DNA from: Victivallaceae bacterium
Lineage (GTDB): Bacteria > Verrucomicrobiota > Lentisphaeria > Victivallales > Victivallaceae
DNA length: 64,000 nt
Direction of reading: 5' to 3'
Assembly: GCA_028718375.1 (NCBI GenBank)
Contig: JAQULZ010000001.1
Span: 5,383 to 69,382, forward strand
The stretch's first letter is position 1. Every line of letters begins with the position of its first letter. Positions 36,301 to 39,853 of this stretch are shown here, one piece after another. Made by a program: the position numbers and the translations under genes. Below the pieces are notes generated by a model. It worked only from the letters and a program-made list of their open reading frames with translations, was not told where the DNA came from and ran no database searches.

Positions 36301-36814
36301 AATCGAAACCCATACCATTTCCGTTCTGGTGGATAATAAATTCGGCGTGCTGGCGCGGGTAGCCGGTTTGTTCAGCGGACGCGGTTATAACATCATGTCT
36401 CTGACCGTCAATGAAACCCAGGATCCGACCCGCTCCCAAATGACAATCGTTACCGCAGGCGACGAAACGGTTATCGACCAGATTGACAGCCAGCTCAGTA
36501 AACTTATCGACGTCATCAAAGTGGAAGACCTGACCCACCGGAATTTCATCGAACGCGAGCTGGCGCTGATTAAAATTCACGTCACCGACGACAATAAAAA
36601 ATCGCAGATTATTCAGTTGGTGGAAATTTTCGAAGGAAAGATTGTTACCGTTTTCAAGGATGAATTCGGCATCGAGATTGCGGGACGGGCCGATAAAATC
36701 GATAATTTCGTGACCCTGCTCGCGGATTTCGGGGAAATAAAATTAGCCCGTTCCGGACGCGTGGCGCTTTCCAGGGAAAAAGAATTTTATACCGATTTGC
36801 AATCTAAGAGCTAG
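36293..36814 (+). CDS. ilvH: Acetolactate synthase small (regulatory) subunit-like ACT protein
   Basis: From ATG 36293, overlapping the trpF stop (ATGAGTAA): [39 protein letters not shown]...TIV...IDQI..[10 protein letters not shown].DL. The ORF-track start at 36185 lies inside trpF. The last 8 codons (YTDLQSKS) are encoded by the 23-nt repeat. Confidence 0.85.
   Translation: [173 protein letters not shown]
36789..36811 (+). repeat. 23-nt repeat, copy A (ATACCGATTTGCAATCTAAGAGC), 3' end of ilvH
   Basis: Identical to 39825-39847. The extended match 36786-36815 vs 39822-39851 has 2 mismatches. Confidence 0.9.
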
Positions 36815-36863
36815 TGTCGAGTCAAGCCTGTAAGGTCGGCAAGACCGAGGGGATTTGTGCGGA

Positions 36864-36885
36864 GCTCTTAGATGCAATTCGGTAT
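36864..36885 (-). repeat. Inverted imperfect copy A' of the 23-nt repeat (GCTCTTAGATGCAATTCGGTAT)
   Basis: Pairs with copy A over 21 bp (one T-T mismatch, one bulged A by my alignment), with a 52-nt loop. Confidence 0.85.
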
Positions 36886-36902
36886 TAACGGACGAAAACG
36901 GC

Positions 36903-37160
36903 ATGACGGATAAAAACCAAGACGATGACAACTATGACCTTCCTCCCGGCATCACCCTGCCCCGGGATATTTCTTCGGATTATCCGAACTGGAAGAAAGG
37001 CCTGATTTACGGTATGGCCTGCGGTGTTTTCGGAGCTTTGGTATTTTCTGTTGCGCCGTTGGGCCGGGGAGTAGAAAAAATCGGGTATGCGGCAGTTGGT
37101 TTCATTGCCGGATTTCTGATGCTCGGGGGCATTATGACGTTCCGGCCGCCGAAAAGTTAG
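36903..37160 (+). CDS. Small (85-aa) two-TM membrane protein, function unknown
   Basis: MTDKNQDDDNYDLPPGI... followed by hydrophobic LIYGMACGVFGALVFSVAPL and IGYAAVGFIAGFLMLGGIMTF. No clear RBS. The longer ORF-track start (36855) lies inside the inverted repeat. Confidence 0.4.
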   Translation: MTDKNQDDDNYDLPPGITLPRDISSDYPNWKKGLIYGMACGVFGALVFSVAPLGRGVEKIGYAAVGFIAGFLMLGGIMTFRPPKS

Positions 37161-37190
37161 AAAAACGGATGAAACGGATGAAACAGACGC

Positions 37191-38606
37191 GTGACGACAG
37201 CGAAAATAATTTTTGACGCAGGTACCTTATTATTGGAAAGCCTGCCCCTGGAAAAATTGCCCGTTCCCTTATTGCGCCACATCAAATATGATGAGCGCGT
37301 TGCATGTCATCGCTGCCTGGCTTATCATTACGCGCCGCTGATCCTGGCGCTGCGTGCCGCTCAGGCCGCTTATCACGATACGGCAAAAAACTTCTCACCG
37401 CTCAAACTTCGCCTCAGCTCCGAATTCACTCCGCGGCCGCATCAGCGCCAGGCATTGGAGCGCTGGAAAGCCTCCCGATGCCGCGCGGTAACCGCGTTGC
37501 CGACCGGTTCCGGAAAAACTTTTCTGGCGGTACAGGCGATCAACTTTTTACAGCGGCCGACGCTGATTACAGTACCGACCATCGATCTGCTCCAGCAATG
37601 GGCGAGCGTCCTGGAACGGTCTTTCAAGACCGGGATCGGTATGCTGGGCGGCGGGACGCGCGAAATCCGGGAAATTACCGTGACCACCTATGATTCGGCG
37701 GTGTTGAACATGGAATTTATCGGCGACCGTTTTGCGCTGCTGGTTTTTGACGAATGCCACCACCTGCCCGGGCCGGTGAACCGTACCGCCGCTTCGATGT
37801 CCCTGGCCCCTTACCGGCTGGGACTGACCGCCACCCCGGAACTCGACGATGAAAATGAACGGATCATGACTGAACTGATCGGCCCGCTGTGCTGTCAAAT
37901 CCATATCGATGAACTGGAAGGCGAAATCCTGGCACCTTACGAAACCCGGCAGTTGCGCGTTGACCTGGATGCGGATGAGGCCGCGGCATATACCTCCAGC
38001 CGGCAGATTTATCTGGATTTCGTCAAACGCAACGGGATCAATTTTCAATCCCGGGACGGCTGGGCGCAGTTTCTGGGGCGCTGCGCGCGGCAGCCGGACG
38101 GCCGGCAGGCGTTCAACGCGTTTCTGGAACAGAGGCGCATCGCCCGCAGCGGCCGCGCTAAAATCCGCCGGGTCTGGGAATTGATCACGGCGCATCGAGG
38201 AGGACGGATAATAATTTTCACCGCCGACAATAAAACCGCCTATCTGCTGGGGCGCACCTTTTTGCTGCCGGTACTGACCCATCATACCAAAGTGGCGGAG
38301 CGCAAGGAAATGCTCGATTTTTTCCGATCCGGCAGATACCCGGTGCTGATCACCAGCAAAGTGCTCAATGAAGGCGTTGACGTCCCCGAAGCCGACATCG
38401 GCATCATTGTTTCCGGCAGCGGCAGCATTCGCGAACATGTCCAGCGGCTGGGACGGATTCTGCGCGCCGGGAAGGGCAAACGGGCTATCCTGTATGAACT
38501 GATCAGCGCCGGGACTTCCGAGGAACAGGTCAGCAAACGCCGCCGCGACCATCGCGCCTATCAGAAACCGGGATTCCGCTGGTTCAGGAGAAAATCCGGA
38601 TGCTGA
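37191..38606 (+). CDS. XPB/Ssl2-like superfamily-2 DNA helicase
   Basis: N-terminal IIFDAGTLLLESLP block like the XPB damage-recognition-type domain. Motif I LPTGSGKTFLA, II LLVFDECHHLP, III LGLTATPE, VI REHVQRLGRILR. GTG start at 37191. Confidence 0.8.
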   Translation: MTTAKIIFDAGTLLLESLPLEKLPVPLLRHIKYDERVACHRCLAYHYAPLILALRAAQAAYHDTAKNFSPLKLRLSSEFTPRPHQRQALERWKASRCRAVTALPTGSGKTFLAVQAINFLQRPTLITVPTIDLLQQWASVLERSFKTGIGMLGGGTREIREITVTTYDSAVLNMEFIGDRFALLVFDECHHLPGPVNRTAASMSLAPYRLGLTATPELDDENERIMTELIGPLCCQIHIDELEGEILAPYETRQLRVDLDADEAAAYTSSRQIYLDFVKRNGINFQSRDGWAQFLGRCARQPDGRQAFNAFLEQRRIARSGRAKIRRVWELITAHRGGRIIIFTADNKTAYLLGRTFLLPVLTHHTKVAERKEMLDFFRSGRYPVLITSKVLNEGVDVPEADIGIIVSGSGSIREHVQRLGRILRAGKGKRAILYELISAGTSEEQVSKRRRDHRAYQKPGFRWFRRKSGC

Positions 38607-39853
38607 CCAAAGACCTGCTCAAATTCAGCCGCCGCGGCAAATACCTTCGTCCCGGATTCATCGCCGCCAGTGATCCCGCATTGCTGCAACTGGCCGAAAA
38701 CCTGCTGACCGTCTACCGGGATCAGGAGGAGGGGAAATATTTAAGCCGGGGGGAAATCGACGAACTTCTCGAACCGGTGCTGAAATCCAATAAAGACCTG
38801 AAACTGGCGCGGGGGCTCAATAAGCTGATTGCCGACCGGTGCGAATTCGCCCAGGCGGGAAAGTTCGATTATCCGGCGCGCCGCCGGGAAATTTTCCTTA
38901 AAGCGGCGGAATTATTGCCGCAGACTTCCGGCGATCATGAACAGTTCCGGCAGCTTTTGATTCAGGATGCGGATTGCGGAGCTTTTGCCCGGCAGGATAT
39001 TTTCGCGGATTTGCCGGAAAACGAAACCCTGGTAAAATACCGGCCGCTGTTTCCCCGCGAACTGCTGGAACGTTACAACTGCGCCCAGGTACAAGGGCTG
39101 CTGTTGAATGCCGCGGAATTGGAAGTCAAGGTTGCCGCGGGGGATTCGGCGGCCCTGCGGCGGCTGTTCAAATATCTCAAATTTTTCCGGCTGCTCGCCG
39201 AAATCACCCGGCAAAAAAGTCCCGCCGGAGAAAGTATGCTGTTGAAAATCAGCGGCCCGGCCAGCCTGTTCGAGAACAGCCGCAAATACGGCCTCCAACT
39301 GGCGGCGTTCTTTCCGGCCGTCTGCGCCCTGGAAGAGTGGCAACTGAAAGCCGACCTCAAACTGAACGGTAAAGTTTACCGGCTGAAGCTGGATGACAGT
39401 AGCGGCTTAGTGTCGCATTACCGCAATTTCAGCGCCTACATTCCGGAAGAAATCCGCCTGTTTCACCGGCTGTTCAAACAAAAAGTGGACGATTGGCAGA
39501 TCAGCGGCGATACGCCTTTTATCCGGGACACCGGTCCGGAAATCATTTTTCCCGATTTCAATTTCCGCAATCGGCATAATGCCGTCATGTATTTGGAACT
39601 GTTTCACCGCTGGCATCGCGGCGCCCTGCTCCGGCGGCTCGAGTTCTGCGCCGCCAACCCGGAACTGCCGCTGCTGCTGGGAGTAGACCGGGCACTGCTC
39701 AACAGCGGCCTGGCTGAACAGCTCGAAACCAGCGTTTACTTCCGCCAAAAAGGTTTTTTGTTCCGGGATTTTCCCGGAGTCGGAAAAGTGCACCAGTTGT
39801 TAAAGGAAAACCAAAGCAGCATTCATACCGATTTGCAATCTAAGAGCAAGTAA
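38600..39853 (+). CDS. DUF790 (Bax1-like) endonuclease family protein
   Basis: The N-terminus MLTKDLLKFSRRGKYLRPGFI resembles DUF790 N-termini. C-terminal IIFPDFNFRN...VMYLELFHRWHRG is a PD-(D/E)xK-like block. 7-nt overlap with the helicase gene. The last codons (TDLQSKSK) come from repeat copy B. Confidence 0.7.
   Translation: MLTKDLLKFSRRGKYLRPGFIAASDPALLQLAENLLTVYRDQEEGKYLSRGEIDELLEPVLKSNKDLKLARGLNKLIADRCEFAQAGKFDYPARRREIFLKAAELLPQTSGDHEQFRQLLIQDADCGAFARQDIFADLPENETLVKYRPLFPRELLERYNCAQVQGLLLNAAELEVKVAAGDSAALRRLFKYLKFFRLLAEITRQKSPAGESMLLKISGPASLFENSRKYGLQLAAFFPAVCALEEWQLKADLKLNGKVYRLKLDDSSGLVSHYRNFSAYIPEEIRLFHRLFKQKVDDWQISGDTPFIRDTGPEIIFPDFNFRNRHNAVMYLELFHRWHRGALLRRLEFCAANPELPLLLGVDRALLNSGLAEQLETSVYFRQKGFLFRDFPGVGKVHQLLKENQSSIHTDLQSKSK
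39825..39847 (+). repeat. 23-nt repeat, copy B, 3' end of the DUF790 gene
   Basis: Identical to 36789-36811 and read in the same frame. Confidence 0.9.

Follow-up and report, generated by a model that had tools for sequence, protein, structure and literature searches.

MITEs derived from IS630 insertion sequences are known in bacteria, such as the cyanobacterial and Neisseria Correia-type elements, and 3-bp TNA or TWA target duplications are known from the IS1031 group of the IS5 family, PIF/Harbinger, and Zator. The elements that we found in an uncultured Victivallaceae (Lentisphaeria) lineage resemble the IS630-derived MITEs in being short (95 to 267 bp) and non-coding, in sharing their terminal inverted repeats (TIRs) with a full-length insertion sequence (IS) encoding an IS630 transposase, and in their target-site duplications (TSDs), dozens of near-identical copies, nesting, and hairpin-forming transcripts, but they differ in their host lineage and in having a 3-bp T-N-A duplication instead of the classical TA. 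This duplication is like that of the IS1031 group, PIF/Harbinger, and Zator; however, the transposase here matches the IS630 model NF033545 and DDE_3 and not IS5/DDE_Tnp_1. In-frame fusions between MITEs and open reading frames (ORFs) are not unusual (review PMC10969869). As in the Rickettsia palindromic elements and other intragenic MITEs (PMC10969869), transposon DNA is translated at this locus and a peptide is common to unrelated proteins, but in the Rickettsia elements the peptide segment is internal, whereas here the insertion lies at the extreme 3′ end of the gene, where the stop codon is replaced or split and just 8 to 9 residues are added.

The window, a stretch of 64,000 nucleotides from one contig of the draft genome, contains an exact 23-nt duplicate on the plus strand (36789-36811 and 39825-39847), for which zero matches were expected from 100 shuffles. 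A 30-nt extension of the pair (36786-36815 versus 39822-39851) has 2 mismatches (93% identity), and both copies are read in a single frame in the ORFs 36185..36814 and 38600..39853, the latter ending in SSIHTDLQSKSK and a stop codon. An imperfect inverted copy (A′) is one base shorter than the direct copy and has one substitution relative to it. These features were all part of the original prediction and were confirmed. The same prediction interpreted the copies as insertion footprints, and in this it was partly right: they are footprints, they are the TIRs of non-autonomous elements, and both ORF ends were rebuilt by them. They do not, however, bracket the three intervening genes, either as a duplicated att site or as the ends of a cargo element, since copies A and A′ form a self-contained element and the flank of copy B differs. 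The 23-mer represents the TIR of a MITE family common in this genome, not the border of a mobile cassette (Table 1). Very probably, the tail common to IlvH and the DUF790/Bax1-like protein arose from two independent MITE insertions at gene ends, the shared heptapeptide being a by-product of shared transposon DNA.

Table 1. Features of the ilvH-Bax1 region (positions in the window)
Feature	Position	Strand	Remarks
ilvH (acetolactate synthase small subunit)	36293..36814	+	Pfam ACT_AHAS_ss and ALS_ss_C
TTA target-site duplication of MITE A, left copy	36787..36789		Overlaps ancestral ilvH TAA stop
MITE A, complete, 95 bp	36790..36884	+	Paired TIRs, TSD, hairpin fold
MITE A left TIR (copy A)	36790-36811		
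MITE A right TIR (copy A′)	36863-36884		
TTA target-site duplication of MITE A, right copy	36885..36887		
Conserved small ORF, 85 aa from ATG 36903	36903..37160	+	Sequence conserved in four congeners
XPB-like helicase	37191..38606	+	XPB_DRD, ResIII, Helicase_C, ERCC3_RAD25_C
DUF790/Bax1-like nuclease	38600..39853	+	Pfam DUF790 2.7e-67; NCBIfam Bax1 below cutoff
TCA flank of MITE B	39823..39825		Left target-site copy; right end lost, no right copy
MITE B, left part	39826..39975	+	Left TIR = copy B
Second MITE family, 158 bp, nested in MITE B	39976..40133	+	
MITE B, short continuation past nested element	40137..40148	+	Alignment to 267-bp copies
Third dispersed repeat	40149..40367		~25 copies, 85-89% identity

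The comparison with the ilvH 3′ ends of relatives, which the original prediction had proposed, revealed an empty site in four congeners. The IlvH proteins of these congeners, which lack MITE A, end in EEF, followed directly by TAA in three of them and by a 3-residue extension in the fourth, and this terminus corresponds to the residue immediately before the tail in the window, where the final 8 codons of ilvH and its TAG stop (36788-36814) are MITE derived. The reconstructed empty site, GAA TTT TAA, is the same as in the relatives, and the junction expected there is GAATTTTA joined to ACGGACG. Additionally, the ATG of the small ORF lies 14 to 17 nt past the ilvH stop in the congeners, and the window agrees with this once MITE A and one TTA are removed. 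The element very probably inserted at T/TA/A, across the final Phe codon of ilvH and its TAA stop. This split the stop to give TA plus T (Tyr), with 7 further codons now read into the repeat before TAG, and re-formed the original TAA 3′ of the element. No empty-site allele from the same species was found at ilvH; the 24 nt to the left of the insertion site, which would identify filled and empty alleles alike, had 0 matches in a metagenome scan, and the exact-protein look-up of the small ORF returned one 1.1-kb Logan contig that begins within the MITE and represents a filled site. The interior of MITE A (36810-36866) is a repeat module that is also found at about 20 other sites.

At the Bax1-like gene, the final 8 residues and the stop (39826-39853) come from MITE B, and homologues of the protein align only up to residues ~402 to 406 of 417. 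The left part of this element shows 95 to 97% identity across ~117 nt with more than 15 copies of a 267-bp family. The 158-bp MITE nested in it belongs to a family with about 60 genome copies (97 to 99% identity), is flanked by a TCA duplication (39973-39975 and 40134-40136), and has ends that match those of another IS630-like IS. Past the short continuation of MITE B, where the third repeat begins, the element lacks its last ~37 nt and with them the right TIR. From these alignments, MITE B appears to be a separate insertion whose right end has been lost, so that it has neither a second TSD nor an exact empty site. A MITE of the 267-bp family would have inserted at TCA a few codons before the gene end, in the same codon phase as MITE A, so that the same repeat codons (TDLQSKS) would be read until TAA, and would later have been struck by the second MITE and have lost its right end beside the third repeat.

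The original prediction had considered that the 23-mer might turn out to be a dispersed repeat, and this is largely what we observed: we counted 17 exact copies in the draft genome, or 38 with up to 3 mismatches, compared with 0 for a control pattern. In a collection of species-representative genomes that excluded the genome of the window, there were 0 exact matches; thus, the exact 23-mer is species specific, although variants do exist in relatives. Across 2.85 Mb, 102 TNA-flanked ends had the same outer motif, the flank being TAA (44), TTA (36), TCA (15), or TGA (7). Fifteen paired elements, among them six 267-bp copies and the 95-bp copy of the window, had identical 3-bp flanks, which were TNA in every case. 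The 267-bp copies are nearly identical among themselves, and TIRs of ~22 nt are present at both ends of MITE A and of every 267-bp copy. This is an ordinary MITE family: its members are small with no ORF inside (95 bp and 267 bp), have TIRs, a TSD with an empty site, and many copies, and share their ends with an autonomous element in the congener G005. The same TIR and TSD pattern was seen in G025, from another family of the order. These elements tend to lie at gene ends. Eight long ORFs of the genome terminate inside such repeats, five with TDLQSK(S/R), two with TELHSNS, and one with TILQSKG.

The IS in G005 is 1131 bp long (L027 296-1426), shares its TIR with the MITEs, and is flanked by a TAA/TAA duplication. 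Its two ORFs match the IS630 family transposase NF033545, with DDE_3 and HTH domains; the C-terminal ORF scored 115 bits (cutoff, 100), and the N-terminal ORF scored 61.9 bits with the N-terminal half of the model. In this sole full copy that we saw, the transposase is split over two frames. The draft assembly of the window's genome has both IS ends, located at contig ends, as well as transposase fragments, with no full-length IS assembled. An IS630-family DDE transposase probably moves the MITEs in trans, and it would insert at T-N-A and duplicate those 3 bp. The duplications were 3-bp T-N-A and not the TA dinucleotide of IS630 elements; because IS630/Tc1-mariner elements classically duplicate TA and not TNA (PMC8533490), we assigned the family from the transposase match and not from the TSD. 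In the literature on IS630-family elements with 3-bp duplications, we found nothing decisive. An IS630-type element with a TNA instead of a TA duplication is a small point of interest for transposon biology and the single unusual trait of this family.

A more far-reaching interpretation is that an IS630-type transposase lineage of the Victivallales shifted from TA to 3-bp T-N-A and that its MITEs systematically rewrite C-termini and are selected for this, which we consider rather unlikely. Since TAA/TGA and T/TA/A overlap stop codons, such elements would land preferentially on or near stops and, with stops in two of three frames at their ends, would re-terminate host ORFs after 5 to 9 codons; if selection and not survivorship lay behind this, the MITEs would be built for tolerance at gene ends, and the rewriting of C-termini would be routine genome-wide. 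All eight of the ORF-terminating insertions are in one frame, but much of this follows from geometry: a stop codon can be overlapped in only two of three phases, and in the phase where the stop is formed by the duplication itself, the ORF is not altered (7 cases). The stop was restored in just 2 of the 4 cases that could be reconstructed. Given this count and how much the geometry explains, we make no claim of targeting.

It is very unlikely that the elements are REP/ERIC-like RNA hairpins recruited by the host, with the A/A′ hairpin regulating read-through beyond ilvH into the genes that follow it. The region 36785-36892 does have a very stable fold (-47 kcal/mol; z = -6.1), and 32 of the 102 ends lie at, or no more than 30 nt after, the 3′ end of a long ORF. 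However, the hairpin is not followed by a T-run, a scan for intrinsic terminators gave no site at 36790-36890, an Rfam scan of 36500-40500 gave no match, and the relatives manage without the element. The clear TSDs and the autonomous IS account for its origin, while clustering at gene ends is expected from survival in short intergenic spaces and from the AT-rich TNA target. Both the hairpin and the protein tails are probably functionally neutral.

The three intervening genes are resident and syntenic. The small ORF has hydrophobic stretches and no Pfam or NCBIfam match. Relatives without the repeats keep the order of ilvH, the small ORF, the XPB-like helicase, and the Bax1-like gene, and the three genes are therefore not cargo; this conservation in congeners also contradicts the bracketing of a cassette that was originally predicted. 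In genomes G001, G003, G004, and G005, ilvH adjoins XPB and Bax1, and in other genera of the family it lies within ~1 kb of them. Moreover, A′ and B each have their outer end turned toward the three genes, which places these outside both elements. Pairs of MITEs are able to mobilise the DNA between them (review PMC10969869), and two copies of a related element flank these genes in the same orientation; a second XPB-Bax1 pair is found on contig C181 (74% nucleotide identity). A composite transposon in which the two MITEs carried, or can carry, the small ORF, XPB, and Bax1 is nevertheless extremely improbable: the two MITEs have separate and differing target duplications, a composite would require the right end of B, which is lost, the genes occupy the same locus in MITE-free relatives, and the C181 paralogue is much too diverged for a recent transposition copy. 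The direct repeats around the three genes and the ORF end rebuilt by the left copy could likewise suggest an island integrated site-specifically into the ilvH 3′ end with duplication of an att core, but we rejected this candidate as having practically no chance of being correct, with 17 dispersed exact 23-mers in the genome, no integrase among the ORFs of the region, congeners carrying the same genes in the same place without repeats, an inverted partner and a TTA duplication belonging to copy A itself, and unlike flanks (TTA versus TCA). The repeats thus give no ground for naming XPB and Bax1 a mobile cassette.

The third repeat beside MITE B contains a perfect 16-bp palindrome (40308-40342) and supplies the final 5 codons and the stop of a minus-strand PMT_2 glycosyltransferase gene (40350-41993). 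In annotation, the last residues of this protein and the tails of IlvH and the Bax1-like protein should be treated as transposon derived and not as functional motifs. Fragmentation of the MAG at repeat ends is likewise explained by its many nested MITE families.

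The 23-nt repeat is real and its explanation is ordinary: nested MITEs of IS630-type parentage lie at the ends of two genes, ilvH and the Bax1-like (DUF790) gene. Both exact copies of the 23-mer (A and B) were confirmed, a pair that no match in 100 shuffles equaled, and the extended 30-nt match between them contained two mismatches. Copies A and B are read in the same frame and each provides the last codons of its ORF, with the DUF790 ORF ending in ...SSIHTDLQSKSK before its stop codon. A third, inverted and imperfect copy (A') is also present, and the region 36785-36892 folds into a long hairpin (-47 kcal/mol, z = -6.1). 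All of the sequence observations in the original prediction, including the stem, were borne out. Directly 3' of this hairpin there was no T-run, a terminator scan called no terminator-like site at it, and it had no match in Rfam.

Features of the repeat elements
Feature	Position	Description
23-mer copy A	36789-36811 (+)	exact
23-mer copy B	39825-39847 (+)	exact
Inverted copy A'	36863-36884	1 substitution and 1 missing base
MITE A, complete element	36790-36884	95 bp; A and A' are its two ends
Target-site duplication of MITE A	36787-36789 and 36885-36887	TTA
MITE B, left part	from 39826	95-97% identity over ~117 nt to >15 copies of the 267-bp family
Second MITE family, nested in MITE B	39976-40133	TCA duplication at 39973-39975 and 40134-40136
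Third dispersed repeat	40149-40367	~25 copies, 85-89% identity
1131-bp element in a congener (G005)	296-1426 of locus L027	same ends, TAA/TAA duplication, two ORFs

Across the genome (a 2.85-Mb draft of 206 contigs, 87% complete, with the window on contig C1), the 23-mer occurred 17 times exactly and 38 times with up to three mismatches, compared with 0 for a reversed control pattern. It is dispersed and does not border a mobile cassette. When the search was relaxed to the outer motif with a T-N-A flank, 102 ends were found, flanked by TAA (44), TTA (36), TCA (15), or TGA (7). Facing pairs of ends enclose discrete elements, among them six nearly identical 267-bp copies, 200-, 425-, and 649-bp variants, and the 95-bp copy in the window. 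In 15 end pairs the 3-bp flanks were identical, T-N-A every time, which defines the element proper as TACCG...CGGTA, bordered by a target-site duplication of 3 bp. Two congeners (G001 and G005) also carry these ends with their T-N-A duplications, and a genome from another family of the order has them 39 times.

The 1131-bp element, the probable autonomous partner of these MITEs, was the sole full-length IS observed. Its C-terminal ORF scored 115 bits, above the cutoff of 100, against the NCBIfam IS630 family transposase and matched Pfam DDE_3, while the N-terminal ORF matched the first half of the NCBIfam IS630 transposase model and several HTH domains. These ORFs (310-1361 of L027, minus strand, on contig C48) lie in different frames, 47 nt apart; the gene either relies on a programmed frameshift or has been inactivated by mutation. 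The window's own genome carries both IS ends (the leader, and the transposase C terminus running into the repeat) at seven contig ends and one internal site, together with transposase fragments; full-length copies have evidently collapsed out of the assembly. Contigs C4, C57, C74, C81, C138, C146, and C161 end about 124 nt within IS630-like element ends, which makes collapse of IS and MITE repeats a main reason why this MAG is fragmented. Duplications of 3 bp are known in Zator, IS1031-group IS5, and Harbinger elements. The 3-bp T-N-A duplication seen here is atypical for the family of the transposase, IS630/Tc1-mariner, in which TA is classical (PMC8533490).

Deletion of MITE A and one TTA gives GAA TTT TAA CGG..., which reads ...EKEF and then a stop. 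IlvH of four congeners (G001, G003, G004, and G005) aligns through the Phe preceding the MITE A tail, and TAA follows that Phe immediately in three of the four, the other (G003) having a 3-residue extension. The ATG of the conserved small ORF lies 14 to 17 nt further on in all four, as it does in the window after MITE A is deleted. This match to the congeners' empty site indicates that MITE A landed on the ilvH stop codon. Insertion at T|TA|A split the stop into TA+T (Tyr), and translation now continues to a TAG within the repeat. Comparison of ilvH 3' ends, suggested earlier as a way to find an empty site, places the ancestral end at Phe, and the present IlvH tail is neither ancestral nor conserved. 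A metagenome scan (0 matches) and an exact-protein look-up (one contig only, with the site filled) yielded no same-species allele with an empty site. The MITE A interior (36810-36866) is a ~57-nt module found at about 20 other sites with 96-98% identity, often in inverted pairs at a spacing of ~278 bp, a pattern that suggests one more MITE family. MITE A itself looks like two IS630-type ends flanking a fragment of another element.

The original prediction read the repeats as insertion footprints around a three-gene cassette; terminal repeats of MITEs do lie at the ilvH and Bax1-like gene ends, but they do not bracket a cassette. The order ilvH, small ORF, XPB-like helicase, Bax1-like gene is kept in G001, G003, G004, and G005, ilvH and the helicase are no more than about 1 kb apart in other genera of the family, and no repeats occur at the matching positions of these loci. 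Since A' forms the right end of its element and B the left end of another, with the outer tips of both facing the cassette, the genes lie between two elements and not within one, and the unlike duplications (TTA at A, TCA at B) indicate two separate insertion events. By gene order and end structure, then, the three genes are not cargo. A second pair of XPB-like helicase and Bax1-like genes in this genome (C181:10-2319) shares 74% nucleotide identity with 37473-39782 of the window. The helicase (37191-38606) matched the PADLOC model PbeA across the helicase core (9.7e-54), the Bax1-like protein and small ORF had no PADLOC match, and the NCBIfam XPB and Bax1 scores were far under the equivalog cutoffs.

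MITE B, directly preceded by TCA, is interrupted by a 158-bp MITE with about 60 genome copies (97-99% identity), whose ends are those of another IS630-like IS on contig C44. Past this nested copy MITE B resumes for ~12 nt; its final ~37 nt, right inverted repeat included, are lost. Congener Bax1-like proteins end 2 to 16 residues past a conserved ...LL-EN motif in unrelated tails, and alignments to distant homologues stop at residues ~402-406 of 417, so MITE B replaced a few C-terminal residues at most. Going by the named relatives of the DUF790 locus, the genome belongs to an uncultured Victivallaceae lineage. The third repeat, which extends further right in other copies, contains a perfect 16-bp palindrome (40308-40342) and supplies the last five codons and stop of a PMT_2-type glycosyltransferase gene (40350-41993, minus strand), the third gene in 4 kb with a repeat-derived C terminus.

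Eight ORFs of at least 120 open codons in the genome read into element ends, with tails TDLQSK(S/R)... (five), TELHSNS (two), and TILQSKG (one). At 7 additional ends a long ORF stops at the duplicated TAA or TGA itself, and another 17 ends lie within 30 nt downstream of a long ORF. The read-in phase was identical in all eight ORFs, largely a matter of geometry, since overlap with a stop is possible in only two of the three phases and one of these leaves the ORF unaltered. No claim is made that stop codons are actively targeted, as an AT-rich T-N-A target together with survival only where little harm is done would produce this pattern too. In-frame fusions of MITEs to host ORFs have been called not unusual in a recent review (PMC10969869). 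When the empty sites of four complete elements were rebuilt, TAA was restored exactly in two, and the other two lay within longer open frames.
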